Notes: a model not told the origin generated them from the letters alone. A stretch of 64,000 nucleotides of DNA from an uncultured Gemmatimonadales bacterium (GCA_963795085.1 CAWCFX010000004.1:608001-672000), one strand, 5' to 3'. Shown: positions 5,406-17,411, counted from the first letter of the stretch. Made by a program: numbers and translations.

Positions 5406-5434
5406 TTGACAGCGGGCTCCCTGCGTTGCATGTT
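5406..5434 (+). promoter_or_regulatory. Sigma70-type promoter of the arg operon
   Basis: TTGACA 5406-5411, 17 bp spacer, CATGTT 5429-5434. Confidence 0.65.
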
Positions 5435-5451
5435 TATGCATTATGCATAAA
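5427..5451. promoter_or_regulatory. ARG box (ArgR operator)
   Basis: TGCAT-GTTT-ATGCA at 5427-5440 plus perfect palindrome TTTATGCAT-T-ATGCATAAA at 5433-5451; overlaps the -10 and the argG start; argR is in the operon. Confidence 0.8.
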
Positions 5452-6639
5452 CAGCCCATCGTCCTGGCCTTCAGCGGCGGACTCGATACCTCCTACTGTG
5501 TGCCCCGGCTGGCCGAGCAGGGGCACCCGGTGCACACCGTGTTCGTGGATACCGGAGGAAGCACCCGGGAAGAGAAGGACCGAATCCACCGGCAGGCGCT
5601 CGCGGTGGGCGCCGTCGCCCACCACGAGGTGGATGCCCGCGCCGAGGTGTACCAGCGGTTCGTGCGGTTCCTGATCCAGGGCAATGTGCTCCGGGGGGAG
5701 GTGTACCCGCTGAGCGTGGCGGCAGAGCGCACCCAGCAGGCCATGTCGGTCATCGCCAAGGCACGGGAGCTGGGGGCGGCGGCGGTGGCGCACGGTTCCA
5801 CCGGCGCCGGCAACGACCAGGTCCGGTTCGATATCGCGTTCCGGGTGCTGGCGCCGGACCTCGCCATCATCACACCCATCCGGGACGAGTCGGTCACCCG
5901 GGACGCCTCGATTCGCTACCTGCAGGAGCGCAGGCTGCCGGTGCCGGAGAAAGCCGGAGCCTACTCGGTAAACCGGGGCGGGTGGGGCACCACCTGGGGC
6001 GGTGGCTGGACCCATGACCCCTGGGCCGGTCCGCCCGAGGACCTCCTTCACCCGCCGGCCGATGCGCCCGAAGCCCGGGAGATCGTGGTCGGCTGGGAAG
6101 CCGGGTTGCCCATCTCGCTCGACGGCCGCCAGAAAGCAGGGCCCGACCTGGTCGAAACCCTGGGCGACCTGTCCCACCGCTATGGCCTGGGCCGAAACAT
6201 TCATGTCGGTGAGACTGCCATGGGTATCAAGGGCCGAATCGGGTTTGAGGCCGGGGCCGCGTTGCTTCTGATCGCGGCCCACCGGGAGCTGGAGAAGCTG
6301 GTGCTCACCAAGTGGCAGACGTTCTGGAAGGACCAGCTGGGCCGTTTCTACGGCGACCGGCTCCACGAGGGGCAGTATTTCGATCCGAGCCTCCGGGACA
6401 TCGAGGCCCTGATCACCAGTTCTCAGCGCCGCGTCGCCGGCGAGACCCGGGTGTTGCTGGCGCCGGGACGGTTCCAGGTGGTGGGCACCCGGAGCCCGTT
6501 CTCCCTGATGGATCCCGCCGTGGCCACCTACGGGGAAGAGGCCCGGCTCTGGTCCGGCGACGAGGCGCGTGCCTTTGCCCGGGTCGCATCCATTCCTTCC
6601 CTGCTCGCGGCTCGGGCCGGCCAGGAGAACGGCCGATGA
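5443..6639 (+). CDS. argG: Argininosuccinate synthase
   Basis: VLAFSGGLDTS, AHGSTGAGNDQVRF, GIKGRIGFE. Confidence 0.97.
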   Translation: MHKQPIVLAFSGGLDTSYCVPRLAEQGHPVHTVFVDTGGSTREEKDRIHRQALAVGAVAHHEVDARAEVYQRFVRFLIQGNVLRGEVYPLSVAAERTQQAMSVIAKARELGAAAVAHGSTGAGNDQVRFDIAFRVLAPDLAIITPIRDESVTRDASIRYLQERRLPVPEKAGAYSVNRGGWGTTWGGGWTHDPWAGPPEDLLHPPADAPEAREIVVGWEAGLPISLDGRQKAGPDLVETLGDLSHRYGLGRNIHVGETAMGIKGRIGFEAGAALLLIAAHRELEKLVLTKWQTFWKDQLGRFYGDRLHEGQYFDPSLRDIEALITSSQRRVAGETRVLLAPGRFQVVGTRSPFSLMDPAVATYGEEARLWSGDEARAFARVASIPSLLAARAGQENGR

Positions 6640-7700
6640 TGACCACCCGGGTTCGGCTTGACCGGATTGCCTCCTCCACCCGGAACGCCAACCTGGCCTC
6701 CGAGGTGATGGTCGGTCCCGAGATCGTCTCCGAAGAGGGTTACCTGCTCGCGGTGCGGATACTCGCGGACAAGTCTTCCTACAACTCGGTGGAGGATCTC
6801 TCGGGGCGGATGGTCTCCCTCCGCGGGGGCGATGTGCTGGCCGGAACCCTGGGCAGCCGCCGCGCCCTTCGGGGATACGCCGGCATCGTGCCGGAGCGCC
6901 TGGTCCCCGGCGAAACGATCGAGGTGCTGAACCTCGGCGGCATCCTGGGACGCTGCACGTCGATCAATCCCGACATCGGCCCGCCGTTCCAGGCCGAGGT
7001 GCTGGGTGCCATACTCACCTTTCCCGCGCTGGGCGACCGGGTCGGCCGCCCGGCCCACATCCGCGAGCACTCGATCCCGCCGGCCGACCGGCTCGATGCC
7101 GCGATCCCGGTGGTGTATGTCGCCGGGACCTGCATGAACGCGGGGAAGACCGTCGCCGCCACCGAGCTGGTCCGGGGGATGACCCGGTCGGGCCTGCGGG
7201 TGGCGGCCGCCAAGCTCACCGGGGTCTCGTTGATGCGGGACGCCCTGGCGATGACCGATGCCGGCGCGATTACCGCCGCCACTTTCAACGACGCTGGCAT
7301 CGCCACCACCCGCGCCGGCATGACGGTGCCGGTGGCCCGCGGCATCTTCAACCGGCTGGCCACCAGCAAGCCTGACGTGATTGTCGCCGAACTGGGCGAC
7401 GGCATCCTCGGCGAGTACGGGGTCCAGGACATCCTGCGCGACCCGTCGCTCACCGGGGTGGGCGCCGCCTATGTCATGGCCGCGCCCGATCCGGTGGGAT
7501 GCTGGGGCGCCGCCCAGCTGATGACGCATAGCTTCCACCTGCCGATCACCGTGTTCACCGGTCCCGCCACCGATAACGAAGTGGGGCGGGACTACATCCG
7601 GAACGCGCTCGAGCTTCCCGCCCACAATGCCCTGCGGGACAGCGGGGGACTGACCCAGGTCGTGCTTGCCGCCCTCGCCTCGAACCTGGTGACCGCGTGA
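6636..7700 (+). CDS. DUF1611-like P-loop protein of unknown function in the arg operon
   Basis: VAGTCMNAGKT P-loop, AAKLTG, DAGA, DVIVAELGDG; overlaps argG stop and argC start. Confidence 0.75.
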   Translation: MMTTRVRLDRIASSTRNANLASEVMVGPEIVSEEGYLLAVRILADKSSYNSVEDLSGRMVSLRGGDVLAGTLGSRRALRGYAGIVPERLVPGETIEVLNLGGILGRCTSINPDIGPPFQAEVLGAILTFPALGDRVGRPAHIREHSIPPADRLDAAIPVVYVAGTCMNAGKTVAATELVRGMTRSGLRVAAAKLTGVSLMRDALAMTDAGAITAATFNDAGIATTRAGMTVPVARGIFNRLATSKPDVIVAELGDGILGEYGVQDILRDPSLTGVGAAYVMAAPDPVGCWGAAQLMTHSFHLPITVFTGPATDNEVGRDYIRNALELPAHNALRDSGGLTQVVLAALASNLVTA

Positions 7701-8725
7701 AAGCCGTCGTCATCGGAGCCGCCGGATATGTCGGCGGCGAGTTGCTGCGGCTCCTGCTGCAGCACCCGGAGGTGACCATTTGTTCGGCAGTAAGCCGGAG
7801 CCAGGCCGGCAAGGCGCTGGGCGAGATTCATCCCGGGCTGCTGGGCCTGACCGACAGCGTCTTCAGCGGGGCGAGCCCCGCCGAGGCGGCCCGGGAAGCC
7901 GATGTGGTCTTCCTGTCCCTCGAGCACGGCGAGAGTTCCCGGATCGCGGCGGAACTCTTTGCCAACCCTCCCGCGCTGGTGGTGGACCTGGCGGCGGATT
8001 TCCGGGTGCCCCAGGTGCCGCTCTACGAGCGGTACTACGGCGCTCACCCTTCGCCCGACTTGCTGTCCCGATTTCAGTACGGCCTCGCCGATGTGCGGGG
8101 GACCGAACTGCGGGGCGCCCGGGCGATCGCGGTCCCCGGCTGTTTCGCGACCGCCGCCCAGCTGGCGCTCTACCCGCTGGCCGGCATCGTGGACGACGGG
8201 CCGGCCCTCTTCGCGATTACCGGCTCGAGTGGGAGCGGGGTGCATCCCCGGGCGACCACCCATCACCCGGCGCGCGCCAATAATGTATTCGCCTACTCTG
8301 TGCTCTCTCACCGGCACGAGGCCGAAATCCTGGGCCAGTGGCGGGCCTGGACCGGCCGGGAAGATGCGTCGGTCCGCCTGATGACCCATTCGGGCCCCTT
8401 CGTCCGGGGGATCTATCTCACCCTTCGGGCGACTCGGCGGGCGGGCGGGTCCGCGCAGGAGCCCGCCGCCTGTTTCGAACGCACCTACGCCGGGCGGCCC
8501 TTCGTGCGGCTGCTTTCCCAGCCACCGGAGCTGACCCATGCTGTCGGCGGCAACAGCGCGCTTATCCACGTGGCCGCCGATGCGGCCGGCGCCGACATCC
8601 AGGTGTCGGTGGCCATTGATAACCTCATCAAAGGCGCCGGGGGCCAGGGGGTGCAGGCCATGAACCTGGCGCTGGGCTTGTCCGAGACGGCCGGGCTGCC
8701 GGCCGGGGGAATGTTCCCATGCTGA
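7697..8725 (+). CDS. argC: N-acyl-gamma-glutamyl-phosphate reductase
   Basis: GAAGYVGGE, VDLAADFR, PGCFAT, IDNLIKGAGGQ. Confidence 0.96.
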   Translation: MKAVVIGAAGYVGGELLRLLLQHPEVTICSAVSRSQAGKALGEIHPGLLGLTDSVFSGASPAEAAREADVVFLSLEHGESSRIAAELFANPPALVVDLAADFRVPQVPLYERYYGAHPSPDLLSRFQYGLADVRGTELRGARAIAVPGCFATAAQLALYPLAGIVDDGPALFAITGSSGSGVHPRATTHHPARANNVFAYSVLSHRHEAEILGQWRAWTGREDASVRLMTHSGPFVRGIYLTLRATRRAGGSAQEPAACFERTYAGRPFVRLLSQPPELTHAVGGNSALIHVAADAAGADIQVSVAIDNLIKGAGGQGVQAMNLALGLSETAGLPAGGMFPC

Positions 8726-9897
8726 CGACGCCCGGAGCCCAGGTGGCCCCACGGCGCGGCGCCGCGCTGCTTCCGGTGTACGCGCCGATGCCGCTTCGGG
8801 CCCGGTCCGGCCATGGGTCCTGGCTGGTGGACGAGGACGGTAACCGGTGGCTCGATGCCTATGGCGGCCATGCCGTGTCCTCTACCGGGCACTGTCATCC
8901 CCGGGTGGTCCAGGCCATCGCCGACCAGGCCGCGACCCTGCTGTTCTATTCGACCGCGGTGCCTCACGCTGCGCGGGAGGAGTTTGCCGACCGGCTGGCC
9001 GCCCTCTGTCCTCCGCAGCTGGACCGGGTTTTCCTGTGCAACTCGGGCGCGGAGGCGAACGAGAATGCCCTGCATTTGGCCCGGCGTTTCACCGGCCGCC
9101 AGCAGGTGGTGACCCTGGAGGGCGGCTGGCACGGCCGGACCGCGGCGACCCTGGCCTGTTGTGACGGCGCCCGATACGAGGCTGGCGCCCGCCGGGCCGG
9201 AATGCCCCTTTCCCGCCGCGCGGCGTTCAACGACCTGGACAGTCTCGCCCAGGTTCTCGACGATTCGGCTGCGGCGTTGCTGCTGGAGCCGGTGCAGGGC
9301 ATGGCCGGGGCCCGCGATTGTACCAGGGAGTTTCTCCAGGGCGCCCGCCGGCTCTGCGATGAGCGCCGGGTGGTGCTGATCTTTGACGAGATCCAGTGTG
9401 GCGCCGGCCGGAGCGGCCATTTCACCGCGGCCGAAGCGTTCGGGGTCACGCCGGACATTGTCACCATGGCCAAGGGTCTCGCGTCGGGCCTGCCGATCGG
9501 CGCGGTGGTCGCGTCCCGGCGGGTGACCGACGATCTCAAAGTGGGCGACCTCGGGAGTACCTTCGGCGGCGGACCGGTCCCCTGCGCGGCCGGCATCGCT
9601 ACCCTGGATGTGATCCGGGACGAAGCGCTGCTCCACAACGTCCAGGCGGTCGAGCGGCGGATCCGGGAGGGTGCCCTCCGCTTGGGGATTCCGGTGCAGG
9701 GGAAGGGGTTGTTGCTCGGGCTCCGGCTGGGCCGGCCCGCCACACCGGTCCAGCAATCCCTGTTCGAGCGTCGGATACTCACGGGGACTTCTTCCGATCC
9801 CGAAGTGCTCCGCCTGCTGCCGCCGCTGACTTTTTCCGAGGCCGAGGCCGGCCTGCTGCTGGATAACCTCGCCGCTTCCCTGGAGGCGCGGCCATGA
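8719..9897 (+). CDS. argD: Acylornithine aminotransferase (class III PLP)
   Basis: NSGAEANE, WHGRT, EPVQG, DEIQCG, MAKGL, GSTFGG. Confidence 0.93.
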   Translation: MLTTPGAQVAPRRGAALLPVYAPMPLRARSGHGSWLVDEDGNRWLDAYGGHAVSSTGHCHPRVVQAIADQAATLLFYSTAVPHAAREEFADRLAALCPPQLDRVFLCNSGAEANENALHLARRFTGRQQVVTLEGGWHGRTAATLACCDGARYEAGARRAGMPLSRRAAFNDLDSLAQVLDDSAAALLLEPVQGMAGARDCTREFLQGARRLCDERRVVLIFDEIQCGAGRSGHFTAAEAFGVTPDIVTMAKGLASGLPIGAVVASRRVTDDLKVGDLGSTFGGGPVPCAAGIATLDVIRDEALLHNVQAVERRIREGALRLGIPVQGKGLLLGLRLGRPATPVQQSLFERRILTGTSSDPEVLRLLPPLTFSEAEAGLLLDNLAASLEARP

Positions 9898-10904
9898 CCA
9901 AGCGCGATTTCCTTGCCGTGGAAGACTGGTCGCCTGCCCAGATCACCGCCCTTCTCGACCTGGCCGACCGGGTCAAGCGGGGCGAGGTGAGCGGCGGCCT
10001 GGAGCGGAAGGTCATGTCGCTGGTGTTCATGGATCCGAGCCTGCGGACCCGGGCCAGTTTCGAGGCGGCGATGTTCCTGCATGGCGGGCACGCCATTGTG
10101 TTGGAGCCGGGCAAGGGCAGCTGGACCCTGGAGACGGAGCCGGGCGCGGTCATGGACGGCGCCTCGGTCGAGCATATCGCCGATGCGGCCCGGGTGCTGG
10201 GGCGCTATGCCGACGTTGTCGGCGTGCGGAGCTTTCCCCGGGGGAGCGACTGGCAGGTGGCCCGCCAGGACCGGGTCATCCGCAACTTCGCCCGCTACTG
10301 CGAGAAGCCGGTGATCAACCTCGAGTCCTCGCGGCGGCACCCCTGCCAGGAGCTGGCGGACGCGATGACGCTGCGGGAGACCCTGGGGGATACCCGCGGC
10401 AAGCGCTTCGTGCTGAGCTGGGCCTGGCACCCCAAGGCCCTCCCGACGGCGGTGCCGGTGAGCGCCGCGCTGGCCGCGGCCCGGCTGGGTATGGAAATCG
10501 TGATCGCGCGGCCCGAAGGGTATGAGCTGGATCCGGATGATACCGCGCTCATCCGGCAGGTCACCCGGGAGTCCGGCGGCCAGGCGGTCCACATCATCAA
10601 CGACCCCGATGAAGCGCTGGTGGGTGCCGACGCGGTCTATGTCAAATCATGGGGCTCGTTGAAGCTGTACGGAAAACCCGACGAGGAGCAGGCCCTCCGC
10701 CACGGCCACCGTGACTGGAAGCTGACCGAGTCCCGCCGCCGCTCCAGCCGGGGAAGCAAGGGAGTCGTGATGCATTGCCTGCCGGTGCGGCGTAACGTGG
10801 AGATCGACGACGAAGTCCTCGACGGTCCCCACTCGGTGGTGGTGGACCAGGCCGAAAACCGGCTCCATGTCCAGCGGGCGCTCCTGCTGGAGATGCTCCG
10901 ATGA
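9894..10904 (+). CDS. argF: N-acylornithine carbamoyltransferase (ArgF' type, probably N-succinylornithine-specific)
   Basis: PSLRTR, HPCQ, HCLP; ArgF'-specific WTLETEPGAVMDG and WAWHPKALP loops. Confidence 0.92.
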   Translation: MTKRDFLAVEDWSPAQITALLDLADRVKRGEVSGGLERKVMSLVFMDPSLRTRASFEAAMFLHGGHAIVLEPGKGSWTLETEPGAVMDGASVEHIADAARVLGRYADVVGVRSFPRGSDWQVARQDRVIRNFARYCEKPVINLESSRRHPCQELADAMTLRETLGDTRGKRFVLSWAWHPKALPTAVPVSAALAAARLGMEIVIARPEGYELDPDDTALIRQVTRESGGQAVHIINDPDEALVGADAVYVKSWGSLKLYGKPDEEQALRHGHRDWKLTESRRRSSRGSKGVVMHCLPVRRNVEIDDEVLDGPHSVVVDQAENRLHVQRALLLEMLR

Positions 10905-10966
10905 GCGGCCGGCCGGGTGGGGTGCCGGGGACGGCGGGGCGGAAAACCGATACCGGAGAGACCAGG

Positions 10967-11899
10967 GTGATCGATTCAGCGAAGGGGGTGGTGGGACTCA
11001 AGGGCGCGTTGCGGTACGTGCGGGCCTACCGGGACAATATCTTCGTGCTCAAGCTGGGCGGAGACGTGGCGGGCGAGAGCGATACGCTGGACCATGTCGC
11101 CGCGCAGGTCGCCCTGCTTTCGTCCCTGGGCATCAAGCTGGTCATCGTGCACGGCGGCGGCCCCCAGGCCACCCGGGTGAGCCGCCGGCTGGGATTCGAG
11201 CCGCGGATGGTGAACGGCCGCCGGGTGACCGACGATTCCGCGCTGGAAGTGGCCAAGATGGTGTACGCCGGCACCATCAACGTGGACGTCGTGGCGGCCC
11301 TGCGGAGCCACGAAGTCCAGGCGGTGGGCCTCTCCGGCGTGGACGCCGACCTGCTGACCGCGCACCGGCGCCCACCGGTGACGGTGGCCACCGCCGGAGG
11401 GGGCAGCGAACTGGTGGACTACGGCCATGTCGGTGATCTCGACGGGGTGGATCCGCGGGTCCTGCACACCCTGCTGGCCGGCCGGTTCGTCCCCGTCATC
11501 GCCAGCCTGGCCGGCGACCAGGACGGCAACATCTTCAACGTCAACGCCGACACCGTGGCCGAGTCGCTGGCGGTATCACTCCAGGCCCAGAAACTCATCT
11601 TTCTCACTGGCGCGCCCGGTATTCTCCGGGACCGGAACGACGACTCGACCCTGGTCGCCTTTGCCGATCCGGAAGAGCTGGGCGCCCTGATGGCCGCCGG
11701 CGCGATCCAGGGCGGCATGCTGCCCAAGGTCGAAGCGTGCATCCGCGCGGCGACCAACGGGGTCGAGCGGACCCACATCATCGGCGGGAAGGGCACCGAC
11801 GCGCTGCTGCTGGAGGTGTTCACCGGGGCCGGGTGCGGCACCATGATCGTGGGGCGCAAGGAAAAGGCCGCCTATCTCGATGTCGATCTCGCCGACTGA
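10967..11899 (+). CDS. argB: Acylglutamate kinase
   Basis: VLKLGG, VHGGGPQ, GRRVTD, NVNAD, GGMLPK; GTG start with GGAG SD. Confidence 0.95.
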   Translation: MIDSAKGVVGLKGALRYVRAYRDNIFVLKLGGDVAGESDTLDHVAAQVALLSSLGIKLVIVHGGGPQATRVSRRLGFEPRMVNGRRVTDDSALEVAKMVYAGTINVDVVAALRSHEVQAVGLSGVDADLLTAHRRPPVTVATAGGGSELVDYGHVGDLDGVDPRVLHTLLAGRFVPVIASLAGDQDGNIFNVNADTVAESLAVSLQAQKLIFLTGAPGILRDRNDDSTLVAFADPEELGALMAAGAIQGGMLPKVEACIRAATNGVERTHIIGGKGTDALLLEVFTGAGCGTMIVGRKEKAAYLDVDLAD

Positions 11900-12962
11900 G
11901 ATCGCGCTGCTCCGCGACCTGGTCGCCACCCCTTCGGTCAGCGGGACCGAAGAGGCGGCCGGTCAGCTGGTGGAGACGGTCGCCCGGCAATGGGGTCTCG
12001 ACGTGGTGCGCGATGATGCCGGGGTGCGGATCGAAGTGGATTTCGGGGGCGGCGGGCCTACCCTCGCCCTGGTCAGCCATCTCGACGTGGTACCGCCGGG
12101 CGAAGGATGGACCCGCGATCCGTTCACCCCGGTGGTCGAGAACGGCCGCCTGTACGGGCGCGGCTCCGGCGACGCCAAGGCCTCGGTCGCGGCGATGCTG
12201 ACGGCGGCGCGGGACACGGCGGGGGATCGCTCCGGTGCCGCCGGGCGGCTGCTGGTCCTCCTGGGGTACGGCGAAGAGACCCACGACACCACGATGGCGG
12301 AAGCCGTACGCCGGTCCGGAACCATCGATGCGGCGGTGATCGGTGAGCCAACCAATCTCGAGGTCGCGGTAGCCCAGCGGGGCCTGCTGATGATCGACCT
12401 GGTGGCCCGGGGCAGCCAGCGACACGCCGCCTATGCCGGAGACGGCACCTTCACCAATGCCCTCGAGGTGCTGGCCCGGGACCTCGGCGCGCTGGGCGCC
12501 CTCTGCCGCGACCGGCCCCACCCGGTGCTCGGCCATCCCACGATCACCCCGACGATGGTCAGCGCCGGGGTGAGCCGCAACGTCACTCCGCCGACGGCCA
12601 CCGCGATCCTCGATGTGCGCAGCACGCCGAACTGGACCCATGAAGAGCTGGCAGAGGCTATCACGCTGGTCGTGAAATCGGAGGTCGTGGTGACGTCGGA
12701 CCGGCTGGTGCCCTGCGAGACTCCGGCGCCCTCGCGCCTCCTCGAGGCGGCGCTGGAGGTCCGGCCCGGGGCGGGGCGCTACGGCAGTCCTACCTGTTCG
12801 GACTGGGTCTTTCTCCGGCACGTGGACGCCTTCAAGTGTGGCCCGGGCACCAGCAAGGTTTCGCACACGCCGGACGAATGGGTCGCCCTGGCCGAGGTGA
12901 CCGAGGCGAGGTCATTCTACGGCAGGCTGGTGAAGACTTACCTCAATGCGGCGGCCCGATGA
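11880..12962 (+). CDS. argE: M20 deacylase (ArgE-like; acyl-citrulline deacylase in an ArgF' pathway)
   Basis: SHLDVVP, GRGSGDAK, GEE, IGEPT, HTPDE. Confidence 0.88.
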   Translation: MSISPTEIALLRDLVATPSVSGTEEAAGQLVETVARQWGLDVVRDDAGVRIEVDFGGGGPTLALVSHLDVVPPGEGWTRDPFTPVVENGRLYGRGSGDAKASVAAMLTAARDTAGDRSGAAGRLLVLLGYGEETHDTTMAEAVRRSGTIDAAVIGEPTNLEVAVAQRGLLMIDLVARGSQRHAAYAGDGTFTNALEVLARDLGALGALCRDRPHPVLGHPTITPTMVSAGVSRNVTPPTATAILDVRSTPNWTHEELAEAITLVVKSEVVVTSDRLVPCETPAPSRLLEAALEVRPGAGRYGSPTCSDWVFLRHVDAFKCGPGTSKVSHTPDEWVALAEVTEARSFYGRLVKTYLNAAAR

Positions 12963-14347
12963 AACCTGCACCGAAGCGGCCTACCCTGTGGGCCGCCCAT
13001 GCCACGCCGGACCCGGCCATGCTGGCCTACACCGCGGGCTCCGACCAGGCCTGGGATGCCCGGCTGCTGCCCTGGGACATCCTCGGCAGCCTGGGCCACG
13101 TCGAAGGCCTCGCCGCCTCCCGCCTGATCACCGGGCCTGACCGGGTCCGGCTGCAGCGGGCGCTGCGGTCCGCGCTGCGCGCCGCGGACCGAGGGTCGTT
13201 GGCGCTCGCGCCGGGCGACGAAGACGTCCACACCGCGGTGGAGAACTGGCTGACGGCCAGGTTCGGCCGGGTGGGCGAGATGGTCCATGCGGGCCGCTCC
13301 CGCAACGACCAGGTCGCTTGCGACTTGCGGCTCTACCTCAAAGCCCGGGTGCTCGCGCTGCATGCCCGGGGCCGGGGCGTGGTGCGCCAGCTGCTCGCCT
13401 TTGCCGCCCGGGAGCGGCGCTCGCTCTGGCCGGGCTACACCCACACCCGCCGGGCGATGCCCTCATCCGCGGCGCTCTGGGCGGCGGGGATCGCCGAGGG
13501 GTTGCTGGAAACGCTCGACGCGGCGCCGGCGTTGTGGGGACAGGTGGATCGTTCGCCCCTGGGGAGCGCGGCGGGGTATGGCGTCCCTCTCCCGTTGAAC
13601 CGGGAGGCCGCGGCGCGCGCGCTCGGATTCGGCGGACTCGACCACGCGGTGACCAGCACCCAGAACAGCCGCGGCCGCATCGAAGCGGCGGCGCTCTTCT
13701 GGTGCGCGCAGATTGCCCACGAGCTGGCCCGGTTGTCGGCGGACGTGATTCTCTTCAGCGCGGAAGAGTTCGGCTTCCTGGAGCTTCCCGCCGCGTTCGC
13801 GACCGGTTCCAGCATCATGCCCCACAAGAAGAACCCCGACCTGTTCGAAGTGACCCGGGCCCGCGCCGGGCTGGTCGAGGGTGACCTGGCTTCCGTGCTG
13901 GCCGTTCGGGGCAAGCTGACCAGCGGCTATCATCGCGACTACCAGCTGCTGAAGGAGCCGCTCTTCCGGGGGCTCGACCGGACGGAGGAAATGCTCGCCA
14001 TGCTGGAGCGGGTGATTCCGGCGCTGGTCGTCGCGCGCGGCCGGGCCCGCGCCGCGGTCTCCGGCGACCTGCTGGCGACCGACGAAGTCATGCGGCGGGT
14101 GGAGCGGGGGACGCCGTTCCGCCGGGCTTACCGCGAGGTCGCGCGCCTGCTGGCGGACGGCGAGCCGCCCGAGTCCGCGTCTCCCGGCGCGGTGCTCGCG
14201 CGGCGGCGTTCCACCGGCGGGATTGGGAATCCGGGCCTGCCGGTGCTGGCCCGAAGGCTCCGCGCCCGGGAGCAGTGGGAGAACCGGGAACGCACGCGGT
14301 TCTTCACCGCCATGACCCGGCTGGCCGGACGGAGGGTGGGTGAGTAG
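12959..14347 (+). CDS. argH: Argininosuccinate lyase
   Basis: EDVH, GRSRNDQV, PGYTH, TGSSIMPHKKNPD. Confidence 0.96.
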   Translation: MKPAPKRPTLWAAHATPDPAMLAYTAGSDQAWDARLLPWDILGSLGHVEGLAASRLITGPDRVRLQRALRSALRAADRGSLALAPGDEDVHTAVENWLTARFGRVGEMVHAGRSRNDQVACDLRLYLKARVLALHARGRGVVRQLLAFAARERRSLWPGYTHTRRAMPSSAALWAAGIAEGLLETLDAAPALWGQVDRSPLGSAAGYGVPLPLNREAAARALGFGGLDHAVTSTQNSRGRIEAAALFWCAQIAHELARLSADVILFSAEEFGFLELPAAFATGSSIMPHKKNPDLFEVTRARAGLVEGDLASVLAVRGKLTSGYHRDYQLLKEPLFRGLDRTEEMLAMLERVIPALVVARGRARAAVSGDLLATDEVMRRVERGTPFRRAYREVARLLADGEPPESASPGAVLARRRSTGGIGNPGLPVLARRLRAREQWENRERTRFFTAMTRLAGRRVGE

Positions 14348-14780
14348 CGAACGGAGGAAACGGCATCTTCGCATCCTGGAGCTGATCACCACGCGCCCGG
14401 TCCGCACCCAGGACGAACTCGCCGCGGCGCTGTCGTCCGAAGGATGGAAAGTCACCCAGTCGAGCGTGAGCCGGGATATCGCCGTGCTGGGCCTGGTCAA
14501 GTCGGGGGGGGCCTATCGCCGGGGCCTGCCCCGGGTCCCGGCCGACCCCGACGAGCAGCGCATCAGCGAGGGCGTGCTTTCGGTGGAACGGGCCGGTGAT
14601 GCGTTGCTGGTGGTGCACACCCCGCCCGGGGAGGCCAACCGGGTGGCCGTGGCCCTGGACCGGCTGGCGTGGAACGATGTCATGGGCACCATTGCCGGCG
14701 ACGACACCCTCTTCATCGCGGTGCGGGACCGGGCCAGCCAGACCCGGGTCCACCGGCAGCTGACCAAGATGAGTCCCTGA
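14340..14780 (+). CDS. argR: Arginine repressor
   Basis: TQDEL, VTQSSVSRDI, GTIAGDDT. Confidence 0.96.
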   Translation: MSSERRKRHLRILELITTRPVRTQDELAAALSSEGWKVTQSSVSRDIAVLGLVKSGGAYRRGLPRVPADPDEQRISEGVLSVERAGDALLVVHTPPGEANRVAVALDRLAWNDVMGTIAGDDTLFIAVRDRASQTRVHRQLTKMSP

Positions 14781-14909: not shown

Positions 14910-17411
14910 ATGGCGCTCTTCAGCGGGATCGACATCGCGAACATTCGTGGCAGTATCCGGGGACGGCTCACGCTGATGGCGGCGGCCGTGGTCGCCGCCT
15001 TTCTGCTGCTGTCCATCTCGGAGAGTTACGCGGTCCGGCTGATTCTCCACCGGGTGGAGGCGGACGGCCTGGCCCGCCGGCTGCACTACGCTCAGCGGTT
15101 TTTTGCCCGCCGGGCGGAGACCAAGGCCAACCTCATCAGTGAATTCGCGTTCTGGAATGACACCTGGCGGGCCGTCGAAGCCCCCCACAGCCTCGAATCG
15201 CGCACCCATATCCGGGAGAATTTTCTGGAGTGGCTGCCCCAGCGCTACGGGGAGCGCCTGGTCGAACTGTGGGACAAGGATCGAACGCCGGTCTGGCGCT
15301 GGGCCGATACCGCGATGGTCGGGCTCCAGCCGGGGTTCGACTGGACGGCGCTGTTCGACCGGCTGGATTCCAGCCGGCTGGGCGGCGGGTACCTCCAGAC
15401 TCCGCGGGGCGTCATGCTGGTGTCGGCCGGGGTGATCCTGCGGGAGTGGGATATTACGCTCAAGGGCCCCACCAACGGATACCTGGTCGCCGCCGAGCCC
15501 ATCGATTCTGCCCGGCTCCGCCGGTTCGAGTATGAACTGCAGGAGTCGATTGCCCTCGAGCCGCTGCCGGCCGGCTGGGTTGGTGATTCGGTGCGGATGG
15601 ACGTGGCCGGCGACCAGGCGCAAGCCACCTTCCCCCTCATGGGATTCGACGGACGCCCGGCGGCCCTGGTGACGATCAGTTCACCCCGGGTGGTGAACCA
15701 GCAGCTGGCGCTCTGGACGACGGTGCTCATTGCCGTCACCATGGTGGTGGGTGTGGTGGTGCTCGGTGTGCTCTGGCGGGCGGGCCACCGGCTGGTGGTG
15801 CGGCCGCTGGGCGAGATCGGCGAGAAGCTGGAAAACATGGAACGGGCGGGGGATCTCTCCCGGATCGAAACCTCTCCCCCGACCCGGGAATGGGGGCTCT
15901 TCGTCTCGGCCTTCAATCGCACCATCGACGCGCTCAAGAGCTCGGAGCGCCGGTATCGCGTCCTCTTCGACCATGCCGCGGACGCCCACCTGCTGCTGGA
16001 CGCCAAGACCCAGACCATCCTGGAAGCCAACCCGGCCGCGGAGCAACTGGCCGGGCGGGACCGCCACGCCCTGATCGGGCGGCCCTTCTCGACGGTGGTC
16101 AAGCTGGAACCTTCGGGCTCGCGGGACGGGACCTTTCGACTCCGGCGCCCCGATGGAACTCAGCTCATCGTCGGGGTGGCGACCGCGGAACTGGAGATCG
16201 CCGGCGCCCCCCGTCAGCTGGCTTCGCTGCGCGACCTGACCCGTAACGAGGCCCTCTCCGCCCAGCTCCGGCAGGCCCAGAAAATGGAGGCCGTGGGCTC
16301 CCTCGCCGGCGGGATCGCCCACGACTTCAACAACCTGCTGGGAGCGGTCATCATGGCCTCCTCCACGCTGAAGGAGGAGGTCGCCGGCAACCCGGCGGCC
16401 GCTGAATCCATCCAGACGATCGAACAGGCCTCCCAGCGGGCCGCCGAACTCACCCGGCGCCTGCTCAGTTTTGCCCGGCGGGAGCAGACCGTCAGCGCCC
16501 CGGTCGCGATGAACGAAGTAGTCCAGAACGTGGTGCGGCTGTGCGAGCGGACCTTCAACCGGGTAATCCGGATCGAGGTTGAACTCGATGACCCGCTGCC
16601 CCCGGTCTCCGGTGATGCCGGCCAGCTGGAGCAGGCGCTCCTGAATCTCTGCATCAACTCGCGGGACGCGATGCCACAGGGTGGCATCATCCGCATCGTG
16701 ACCCGGACCAGAAAGGTCTCTATCCGCGAGCCGGCGCACACCAGCGACCTGGAACCCGGTTCCTACGTGACCGTCTCGGTGAGCGACACCGGGTTCGGGC
16801 TGACCCAGCAGGCGGAGCAGCACCTGTTCGAGCCGTTTTTCACCACCAAGGGCCAGGGCAAAGGCACCGGGCTTGGCCTCGCGATGGTCTATGGGATGGT
16901 TCGGGCGCACGGCGGAGCGATCGTGGTTCGCAACCGGCCGGGACAGGGAGTGGAGTTCGAGGTCTTTCTGCCGATGAGACCGGACGGCGCCCTGGAACCG
17001 GCGCATACGCTGACCAGCGGCCCGGCCCGGGGGGAGGAGCGGCTGTTGCTCATCGACGACGAGGCGGCTCTGCGCCGATCAATGGCCCGGGCGCTGACCC
17101 GGCTCGGCTATCACGTGGCGGTGGCGGAGAACGGCGCCCAGGGAGCCCGGATGGTGCAGGAGGATCCCGAGGCGTATGACCTGGTGATCCTCGACATGGT
17201 CATGCCCGAAATGGGCGGAGCCGAAGCGTTCCACGTCATCCGGCAGATCCGGCCTGACATGCGCATCCTGGTGTGCTCCGGGTATTCCGCCGACGAAGAA
17301 CGCAACGAGTTGATACGGGACGGCGCATCCGGGTTCCTGCAGAAGCCCTTCGACACCGTCACTCTCACCGGCGCGATCCGGGAGATCCTGGACGGGGTGC
17401 GTTTGGCCTGA
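14910..17411 (+). CDS. Hybrid sensor histidine kinase (CHASE4-like, HAMP, PAS, HisKA, HATPase, REC)
   Basis: Two TMs, AFWNDT, AHDFNN, FFTTK, GTGLGL, C-terminal receiver LDMVMP. Confidence 0.92.
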   Translation: MALFSGIDIANIRGSIRGRLTLMAAAVVAAFLLLSISESYAVRLILHRVEADGLARRLHYAQRFFARRAETKANLISEFAFWNDTWRAVEAPHSLESRTHIRENFLEWLPQRYGERLVELWDKDRTPVWRWADTAMVGLQPGFDWTALFDRLDSSRLGGGYLQTPRGVMLVSAGVILREWDITLKGPTNGYLVAAEPIDSARLRRFEYELQESIALEPLPAGWVGDSVRMDVAGDQAQATFPLMGFDGRPAALVTISSPRVVNQQLALWTTVLIAVTMVVGVVVLGVLWRAGHRLVVRPLGEIGEKLENMERAGDLSRIETSPPTREWGLFVSAFNRTIDALKSSERRYRVLFDHAADAHLLLDAKTQTILEANPAAEQLAGRDRHALIGRPFSTVVKLEPSGSRDGTFRLRRPDGTQLIVGVATAELEIAGAPRQLASLRDLTRNEALSAQLRQAQKMEAVGSLAGGIAHDFNNLLGAVIMASSTLKEEVAGNPAAAESIQTIEQASQRAAELTRRLLSFARREQTVSAPVAMNEVVQNVVRLCERTFNRVIRIEVELDDPLPPVSGDAGQLEQALLNLCINSRDAMPQGGIIRIVTRTRKVSIREPAHTSDLEPGSYVTVSVSDTGFGLTQQAEQHLFEPFFTTKGQGKGTGLGLAMVYGMVRAHGGAIVVRNRPGQGVEFEVFLPMRPDGALEPAHTLTSGPARGEERLLLIDDEAALRRSMARALTRLGYHVAVAENGAQGARMVQEDPEAYDLVILDMVMPEMGGAEAFHVIRQIRPDMRILVCSGYSADEERNELIRDGASGFLQKPFDTVTLTGAIREILDGVRLA

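Follow-up and report, generated by a model that had tools for sequence, protein, structure and literature searches.

The first step of arginine biosynthesis, the N-acylation of glutamate, is a persistent gap in genome-based metabolic reconstruction, and genomes in which it goes unrecognised are taken for arginine auxotrophs or judged incomplete despite a full operon. The enzymes described for this step are ArgA, which combines an amino-acid kinase with a GNAT domain, short GNATs, ArgJ and fusion proteins with the NAT domain of ArgA/B fusions (PF04768). A further solution was predicted by Price and co-workers (GapMind, 2026), who include ACG33_RS14135 of Steroidobacter denitrificans (A0A127FCT3) as a predicted ArgA; the grounds given in their account of this protein are a conserved arg-operon context, the lack of co-occurrence with a Pseudomonas-type ArgA, a rule on position 92 of the carbamoyltransferase ArgF' and a weak Foldseek similarity to structure 7XRJ (root-mean-square deviation (rmsd) 5.6 Å, E 1.4e-7). 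That structure is DgcN, a DUF1611 protein which by its PDB title is a D-glutamate N-acetyltransferase and thus acylates the amino group of glutamate. As described there, the A0A127FCT3 family consists of hypothetical proteins that are nearly always encoded inside arg operons (argB, argC, argD, argF', argE, argG, argH, argR), occur without a recognisable ArgA, have a remote fold similarity to DgcN and are accompanied by an ArgF' whose residue 92 is small or hydrophobic. Here we analyse a 64-kb stretch of DNA (G000:C4:608001-672000, hereafter the window; GC content ~0.70) from a genome of 3.89 Mb on six contigs that is 93.4% complete and whose close relatives are named Gemmatimonadota or Gemmatimonadales. 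The window carries gene X (6636..7700, + strand), a stop-free frame of 354 amino acids for which all four descriptive features of A0A127FCT3 are reproduced and which we consider a candidate N-succinyl-L-glutamate synthase.

Gene X is embedded in an operon with the order argG-X-argC-argD-argF'-argB-argE-argH-argR, in which every junction overlaps or abuts: the ATG start of X shares four nucleotides with the argG stop (ATGA, 6636-6639) and its stop shares four with the GTG start of argC (GTGA, 7697-7700). The operon encodes every step after glutamate acylation. An earlier note on this DNA had proposed that X supplies the lacking acylation as an enzyme not orthologous to the known ones, and its description of the operon content, the overlaps of X, an ARG box and two motifs in X proved correct in every checkable point. 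Its statement that argA, argJ and an ArgA domain on ArgB are lacking was borne out too: ArgJ is unmatched, the ArgA-like GNAT is an ArsN2 protein and ArgB has the kinase domain only. The search for ArgJ (PF01960) was negative for the genome of the window and positive for 10 of 14 control genomes, and the ArgA model TIGR01890 matched in this genome only ArgB itself and a GNAT of 161 amino acids on contig 3. The latter is ArsN2 (NF040501, 148.8 bits against a cut-off of 125) and scores 35.6 bits to TIGR01890 and 49.6 bits to NF005921; it is the sole ArgA-like GNAT found in the genome, and its gene lies between ArsM and a phosphoesterase-like open reading frame, with ArsR beside ArsM. This ArsR - ArsM (arsenite methyltransferase, 358 bits) - ArsN2 cluster lies outside the window (locus L002, 1426-3212, - strand). 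PF04768 was not found in the genome or in its family, only in another family of the phylum, and Pfam and NCBIfam detected no GNAT, ArgJ or PF04768 domain in X itself. Non-detection in a 93%-complete genome is not equal to absence, but in the light of the comparative genome data given below it is unlikely that an assembly gap is the reason.

The genome also encodes a genuine DUF1611 protein, outside the window on contig 6 (locus L124, 3773-4849, - strand), with scores of 249 bits for PF07755, 95.7 bits for PF17396, 240 bits for the DUF1611 structure 2obn and 201.7 bits for DgcN 7xrj; its role may lie in the use of D-glutamate. We give hardly any credence to the idea that either this protein or ArsN2 supplies the acylglutamate while X acts at another step. 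The resemblance of ArsN2 to the ArgA NAT domain and of the contig 6 protein to DgcN would speak for it, but ArsN2 is above its own equivalog cut-off and sits inside an ars cluster, and every other step of the pathway has a dedicated gene in the operon. Moreover, of 121 genomes of the phylum 80 carry a genuine DUF1611 protein, among them genomes with X, with ArgJ and without ArgC (such as G023), and since it is present regardless of all three, the family does not track arginine synthesis.

The distribution of X is complementary to that of ArgJ. Among these 121 genomes X was present in 31 and ArgJ in 48, and no genome had both. The family of the window contributes 53 other genomes to this sample, 27 with X and 18 with ArgJ, and all of these 45 have a strong ArgC match; the remaining eight have no real ArgC, six being without any match and two having a weak one (4.8e-14 and 6.4e-4). 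These eight relatives (G023, G059, G060, G063, G070, G090, G109 and G112; completeness 95-98%), in which no ArgJ or X was found either, are by their gene content probably arginine auxotrophs. Because kin are not independent, the count was repeated with one genome per genus: across 61 genera of the same family X was found in 28, ArgJ in 16, both in none and neither in 17. Fourteen of these 17 are also without an ArgB-like match, and the three that have one are G134, G144 and G153, two of which are 83% complete. X and ArgJ are thus mutually exclusive in both samples. The 121-genome counts include the unpublished genomes G057 and G097 and the 61-genus counts include G134, and the conclusions are independent of them.

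The same holds for ArgA-like proteins, with which the published comparison was concerned in so far as it set the family against the Pseudomonas-type ArgA only, whereas the contrast here is with ArgJ and with arg-linked GNATs. TIGR01890 was above its cut-off in none of the 61 family genomes. A GNAT resembling the ArgA NAT domain (60-79 bits), usually on the contig with argC and argB, was present in 14 genomes, 13 of them with ArgJ; the fourteenth is G134, 83% complete, in which neither ArgJ nor X was found. In the genomes with X the best match of this kind reached 40.5 bits and was unlinked. Five genomes with X from other phyla (three Myxococcota, one Acidobacteriota and one labelled Verrucomicrobiae) yielded no ArgJ, and in four of them the matches to TIGR01890 were confined to the ArgB part, while the fifth had no match at all. 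A canonical argA or argJ, which according to the earlier note would have refuted its proposal if combined with a lack of conserved arg linkage of X, was thus found neither in the window's own genome nor in these five.

X belongs to a large family. In a scoring of 8000 candidates, 2258 were related to X at the threshold of E<=1e-3, the best 120 of these being 75-84% identical and without names, and in a 50%-identity library 1394 clusters matched X at E<=1e-3 and 862 at E<=1e-10. When species-representative genomes were scanned with a pattern from a 13-row alignment, at least 594 relatives emerged, and the best 80 loci were examined. These come from Gemmatimonadota and from metagenome-assembled genomes labelled Myxococcota, Acidobacteriota/Thermoanaerobaculia, Planctomycetota, Elusimicrobia, Deltaproteobacteria and Verrucomicrobiae, and X adjoins arg genes in all 80. 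The gene directly 3' of X is argC in 77; in two others the contig ends, and L096 has only argG. Four loci of Myxococcota or Deltaproteobacteria are rearranged to X-argC-argD-argB-argE-(argR)-argG-argH, with no argF' nearby, and even there X comes first and lies beside argC. Adjacency of X and argC is also seen in distant copies within the Gemmatimonadota (G061 and G079, 46-47% identity; G043, 42%). In the 34 loci that contain all nine genes, X has a median identity of 74.6%, close to that of ArgG (75.3%) and above those of the remaining seven (59.6-71.6%), and by this measure X is a real gene under strong constraint that is conserved like ArgG. The phylogenetic profile called for by the earlier note therefore came out in its favour, with arg linkage in 80 of 80 loci, rearranged Myxococcota operons included, overlap with ArgJ in 0 of 121 genomes and 0 of 61 genera, and no arg-linked ArgA-like GNAT where X is present.

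On this comparative-genomic evidence we consider it probable that X is the first enzyme of the arginine pathway, whatever its acyl donor. This interpretation is not new, as it is already in print as the GapMind prediction for A0A127FCT3. What the present data add is that, as far as gene content tells, the linear operon type to which X belongs has no other candidate for step one.

Alternatively, X could be an accessory NTPase of the linear arg operon, for instance a metal-insertion chaperone for its M20 deacylase like the G3E GTPases HypB, UreG and MeaB or a factor for assembly or regulation; step one would then fall to an unrecognised protein encoded elsewhere. HypB, UreG, MeaB and ApbC/Cfd1 are indeed among the structural neighbours of X, anti-correlation with ArgJ is expected for any gene of this operon type, and GNATs are many and hard to assign. 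Nevertheless we regard this alternative as improbable: it leaves step one without a candidate in 28 of the 61 genera, X keeps beside argC and not beside argE through the rearrangements described above, its conserved GTCMNAGKT segment has a single Cys instead of a CxCC or His-rich metal motif, and ArgG-level conservation fits a core enzyme. In addition, Steroidobacter is said in the GapMind account to have the homologue but no ArgE, in which respect it differs from the operon of the window, where the M20 deacylase is present.

The fold of X was predicted with AlphaFold2 from a 58-row alignment, with a predicted local distance difference test score (pLDDT) of 96.9 and a predicted TM-score (pTM) of 0.93. 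Assignment of secondary structure with DSSP on the models delimits an N-terminal all-beta domain of residues 1 to ~150 (~130-150; 6636..7085), which is followed by a C-terminal SIMIBI-type P-loop domain of residues ~151-354 (7086..7697) that was recognised by structure and profile matches. The N-terminal domain carries the invariant or near-invariant residues S13, G35, E53, G73, R75, P86, G102, G105 and G124 of the 58-member alignment, and Pfam has no match for residues 1-150 at E<=1. Folded alone, it has a pLDDT of 90.4 and a best fold match of Z 3.6 among 48,161 chains (LexA/lambda-repressor C-domains and Tudor domains). In these models the domain thus appears to be without a clear structural match, which is not proof of a new fold.

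For the whole model, VIA-align ranked the DUF1611 structures 2g0t (Z 17.5, rmsd 2.8, 180 residues aligned) and 2obn (Z 16.2) first, followed by BioD-containing chains at 16.0 and 15.8 (1a82, Z 15.8, rmsd 3.2, 179 aligned) and by ApbC at 15.9; DgcN (7xrj_A) came at Z 15.2 (rmsd 3.1, 187 aligned). These alignments cover essentially residues 150-353 of X, and the matches also include CTP synthase, formyl-tetrahydrofolate (formyl-THF) synthetase, signal recognition particle (SRP) GTPases and the metallochaperone-like proteins named above. Three motifs mark the P-loop domain. The Walker A motif GTCMNAGKT (residues 164-172, 7125..7151) has G170 and K171 invariant and T172 in at least 90% of the 58 members, Lys193 (codon 7212..7214, in AAKLTG) is invariant, and the Walker-B-like strand DVIVAELGDG (residues 247-256, 7374..7403), in which E252 and G254 are conserved in at least 90%, takes the place of VEGAGG in BioD and of VEGQGS in DUF1611 proteins. 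P86 is the fourth invariant residue next to G170, K171 and K193, and D202, D285, S13, E53 and R75 also reach at least 90%.

The label 'DUF1611-like' that the earlier note had given to X holds only loosely, namely for the C-terminal P-loop domain, for which the structure search did rank DUF1611 chains first. With DUF1611/DgcN proteins (PF17396 + PF07755; 7XRJ, 2OBN, 2G0T) X shares the SIMIBI domain (Z 15.2-17.5, rmsd 2.8-3.1, 180-187 aligned) and the Glu that ends the Walker-B-like strand. It differs from them in scoring 20.2 bits to PF07755 over residues 155-201 only, below the cut-off of 25, a model that matches 15 of the 58 X family members at E<=0.01, and in having no PF17396 domain (DUF1611_N), which the control DUF1611 protein of the same genome does have. 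The fold search with the N-terminal domain listed no DUF1611 chain, an outcome that carries little weight by itself. The motifs differ as well: DUF1611 proteins have GTDxxxGK[MR] and ATGQTG where X has GTCMNAGKT and AAKLTG, so that Lys193 of X corresponds to Gly. The Walker A motif ends in GKM in DgcN 7xrj and in 2obn and in GKR in 2g0t, and in 15 Gemmatimonadota DUF1611 proteins G-K is invariant and M occurs in at least 90%. Comparison with hhalign of the X family with these 15 proteins, one of them from the unpublished genome G097, gave a probability of 50% (E 1.6e-4, 179 columns) for residues 150-346 of X only. On profile and motif evidence, then, X is not a true member of DUF1611/DgcN and is distinct from the genome's own DUF1611 gene. 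A literature search on DUF1611 yielded nothing related, and one on DgcN with D-glutamate yielded only a citation of the gene.

The nucleotide site of X has more in common with BioD (TIGR00347/PF13500), an enzyme that forms a C-N bond using ATP. Both have the GTxxxxGKT Walker A motif, with GKT in all six BioD proteins of the family, a Lys on the next strand (in BioD the Lys of the AxKP strand) and a Glu in the context hhhEGxGG, residues that in BioD presumably bind the ATP phosphates and Mg2+ and stabilise the phosphorylated intermediate. The best PDB sequence matches of the X family profile are BioD chains (E 1.7e-4), and hhalign against the six BioD proteins gave a probability of 91.6% (E 8.4e-7), with an alignment limited to the first 48 profile columns. 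X further differs from BioD in its additional N-terminal domain of 150 residues, BioD being a single domain of ~220 residues, and BioD shows no linkage to arginine genes; at E<=1e-10 TIGR00347 matched nothing in the genome, X included, and PF13500 weakly matches 5 of the 58 family members. Taken by these comparisons, X is an unassigned SIMIBI family roughly equidistant from DUF1611_C and BioD.

Because of this canonical BioD-like site (GKT, Lys193, Glu252), as opposed to the GKM or GKR of DgcN and its relatives, a variant of the first-step role remains a live alternative, in which X would be an ATP-dependent succinate:L-glutamate ligase that acts via succinyl phosphate and uses no acyl-CoA, by the same logic as dethiobiotin synthetase, the cobyrinic acid amidases and formate-tetrahydrofolate ligase. 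The conservation of the Walker A residues, the invariant Lys193 and the position of E252 at the Glu of the BioD motif are consistent with it, as are the hhalign values (91.6% for BioD versus 50% for DUF1611), the BioD chains at the top of the PDB sequence matches and the presence of BioD, CTP synthase and formyl-THF synthetase, ATP-dependent C-N-forming SIMIBI enzymes, among the structural matches. We nonetheless hold the ligase to be a doubtful option, as the similarity to BioD spans 48 profile columns only and a canonical P-loop could also hold the diphosphate of coenzyme A (CoA). To our knowledge, moreover, every N-acylglutamate synthase uses acyl-CoA or transacetylation. If the ligase were true, X would recycle the succinate released later by the pathway deacylase, and it might conceivably found a new enzyme class, a succinate:L-glutamate ligase built from a BioD-like P-loop domain and a previously unseen beta-domain. 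For the donor we lean slightly and tentatively to succinyl-CoA, by analogy with DgcN, since it alone among the characterised fold relatives acts on glutamate. In the GapMind account A0A127FCT3 is taken to be an acyl-CoA transferase, with no discussion of the Walker A motif or of BioD-like features in the part on this protein.

ArgF' gives an indication of which acyl group is used. A gap-free alignment to the N-acetylornithine carbamoyltransferase (AOTCase) chains of Xanthomonas campestris places Val at position 92 of the ArgF' of the window (codon 10167-10169); the four PDB chains listed have V, E, A and S there, Glu being the native residue, and the top match has Val. In 63 ArgF' proteins linked to X the residue is Val in 60 and Ile, Thr and Ala in one each, and Glu occurs in none. 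According to Appendix 2 of GapMind (2026), replacement of Glu92 by A, P, S or V switches the Xanthomonas campestris enzyme to N-succinylornithine. Val92 thus predicts N-succinylornithine as the substrate of ArgF' and, with it, the pathway is probably the succinyl variant, so that of the two products which the earlier note had left open, N-succinyl- and N-acetyl-L-glutamate, the former is favoured. If X does catalyse the first step, its product is very probably N-succinyl-L-glutamate because ArgF' has Val at the position that decides between succinyl and acetyl. It seems very unlikely to us that X would make N-acetyl-L-glutamate, with ArgF' as an N-acetylornithine carbamoyltransferase. NCBIfam does give ArgF' that name (417 bits), its closest solved relatives are the AOTCase chains and DgcN is an acetyltransferase by its PDB title; yet Val92 and the lack of Glu in all 63 proteins speak against it, the top PDB match also has Val while the other listed chains have Glu, Ala and Ser, and the models that fit the deacylase best are those of ArgE/DapE and of succinyl-diaminopimelate desuccinylase, in all cases below their cut-offs.

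From these data we infer a reaction in which X would acylate the alpha-amino group of L-glutamate to N-succinyl-L-glutamate, as the entry into a linear pathway of the N-succinyl type. The product would then be processed by ArgB, ArgC, ArgD, ArgF' (as N-succinylornithine carbamoyltransferase), the M20 deacylase, ArgG and ArgH, so that all enzymes of the pathway would be encoded in one operon under control of ArgR. Within X, the SIMIBI P-loop domain would carry the catalytic nucleotide or CoA site and the all-beta N-terminal domain probably contributes to substrate binding. With ArgA, short GNATs, ArgJ and the PF04768 fusions X would share the N-acylation of glutamate and the location in an ArgR-controlled arg operon; its fold is unrelated to theirs, and the genomes that bear X are without these enzymes.

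Several points weigh against this role. The anti-correlation with ArgJ is confounded, because X travels with the whole linear operon type that has argE and argF'. There are related genomes with ArgC and ArgB but no X, ArgJ or PF04768, from which it follows that further solutions to step one exist, and as GNATs are diverse, an unrecognised one may be encoded elsewhere in the 93.4%-complete genome. The structural tie to DgcN is weak: BioD, ApbC, CTP synthase and the SRP GTPases have scores within 1-3 Z units, Foldseek on the whole model returned generic SIMIBI proteins only (SRP GTPases, BioD, ParA, HypB and MeaB, with a query TM of at most 0.39), and when P0001, P0377 and the family profile were searched by sequence against the PDB, the matches were at the level of the P-loop only and did not include DgcN, 2OBN or 2G0T. 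Since the Walker A motif and the whole N-terminal domain of X differ from those of DgcN, analogy of mechanism is unsafe. As to the published prediction, its table entry reads 'confirmed: no' in the journal version (PLoS Genet, 12 Nov 2026), and the identity of X with that family is drawn from matching descriptions, not from sequence. We consider nonetheless that X and A0A127FCT3 very probably belong to the same family. Neither the best 120 relatives of P0001 nor those of P0121 include a record named Steroidobacter, and the names of the 80 loci do not either; the cluster labels given by the Atlas are mostly Pseudomonadota.

Should X be the first enzyme, the gap would be closed for at least 594 species-level genomes that match the search pattern, covering about half of the sampled genera of this Gemmatimonadota family as well as cultured myxobacteria, Acidobacteriota and Planctomycetota, and the P-loop fold would join the enzymes that N-acylate glutamate; with succinate and ATP as donor the reaction would be new as well. 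As the idea itself is already in print, the value of the present analysis lies in added comparative evidence and a sharper mechanistic question. New here are the genus-level exclusion against ArgJ and arg-linked GNATs within one family, the separation of X from the true DUF1611 protein of the same genome, an N-terminal domain without recognisable relative and the BioD-like nucleotide site.

The neighbours of X, all on the + strand, were assigned by Pfam and NCBIfam. Upstream lies argG for argininosuccinate synthase (5443..6639; PF00764, PF20979; TIGR00032, 267 bits). Downstream follow argC (7697..8725; TIGR01850, 322 bits, cut-off 233.6), argD for a transaminase of the acetyl/succinyl-ornithine family (8719..9897; PF00202, 304 bits; TIGR00707, 322 bits), argF' for the N-acylornithine carbamoyltransferase (9894..10904; 417 bits to NF003384, N-acetylornithine carbamoyltransferase, cut-off 288) and argB for the N-acylglutamate kinase (10901..11899), which has PF00696 alone (TIGR00761, 225 bits) and no fused acyltransferase or NAT domain. 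The argE-like gene (11880..12962) encodes an M20 deacylase of the ArgE/DapE family (PF01546, PF07687; TIGR01910, 136 bits, below cut-off), probably an N-succinylcitrulline desuccinylase. Next is argH for argininosuccinate lyase (12959..14347; TIGR00838, 287 bits), whose ATG start overlaps the argE stop (ATGA), and argR for the arginine repressor (14340..14780; PF01316, PF02863; TIGR01529, 116 bits) closes the operon, with a terminator-like hairpin 3' of it (14978..14999, + strand) in a consensus scan. The same kind of scan gave no promoter-like sites inside the operon.

An ARG-box-like palindrome of 14 bp, TGCATGTTTATGCA (5427..5440), ends two nucleotides 5' of the argG ATG. Among 73 related loci, 33 have the exact form TGCAT-N(2-8)-ATGCA 5' of argG and many others have a near-variant, and the element is probably an ArgR operator that overlaps the promoter. 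As only two nucleotides separate it from the ATG, a ribosome-binding site would not fit in between, and argG may be translated from a leaderless mRNA. A TTGACA hexamer lies 5' of the palindrome (5406-5411), where the consensus promoter scan called no promoter.

Further observations concern relatives of X. Cultured myxobacteria (Corallococcus, Stigmatella, Hyalangium) are represented among those of P0121 by proteins named in their source 'DUF1611 domain-containing protein' or 'D-glutamate N-acetyltransferase-like'. In P0237 (626 amino acids), a single case that may be real, an X domain is joined to an ArgB-like kinase domain (127 bits, under the cut-off). Four other single sequences (P0250, P0271-P0273) join X to ArgC-like sequence and are probably read-through gene calls. 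Fused forms were rejected as Rosetta-stone evidence, as only four longer proteins were found, three being single-copy X-ArgC read-throughs and one a weak match (37 bits); because of the overlap of four nucleotides they are probably artefacts of gene calling. Genome G047 has a paralogue of X (L106, 6874-7947, + strand; 32% identity, GTSMDAGKT, EIADG) outside any arg context, directly 5' of a gene whose product of 800 amino acids has a PGA_cap domain (230.7 bits) and weakly matches M36 peptidases, which implies that the wider X family may have other functions. In locus L094, on a contig labelled Verrucomicrobiae, X is 76% identical to that of the window, with the match starting only at locus position 8384; argC and argF' are partial, argD, argB and argE were undetected, and the locus looks like a damaged Gemmatimonadales-type operon or a mis-binned contig.

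Other arrangements were seen in related genomes. Five genomes of the sister family f2 (G036, G040, G074, G114 and G047; loci L102-L105 and L107) have argC-argB-argD clusters, and all of these loci except L104 also show a divergent argR-argG-argH; searches of these genomes found neither ArgJ nor PF04768 nor an arg-linked X. In G058 and G064, of the same class as the window, no ArgJ, X or PF04768 was found either, and an open reading frame of ~220 amino acids that begins with Met-Cys lies between argC and argB (L108, 7386-8057, - strand; L109, 9286-9936, + strand). One copy matches the class-II glutamine amidotransferase domain GATase_4 (26.2 bits, cut-off 23) and the other has no Pfam match; this frame could encode another unrecognised enzyme of arginine synthesis.

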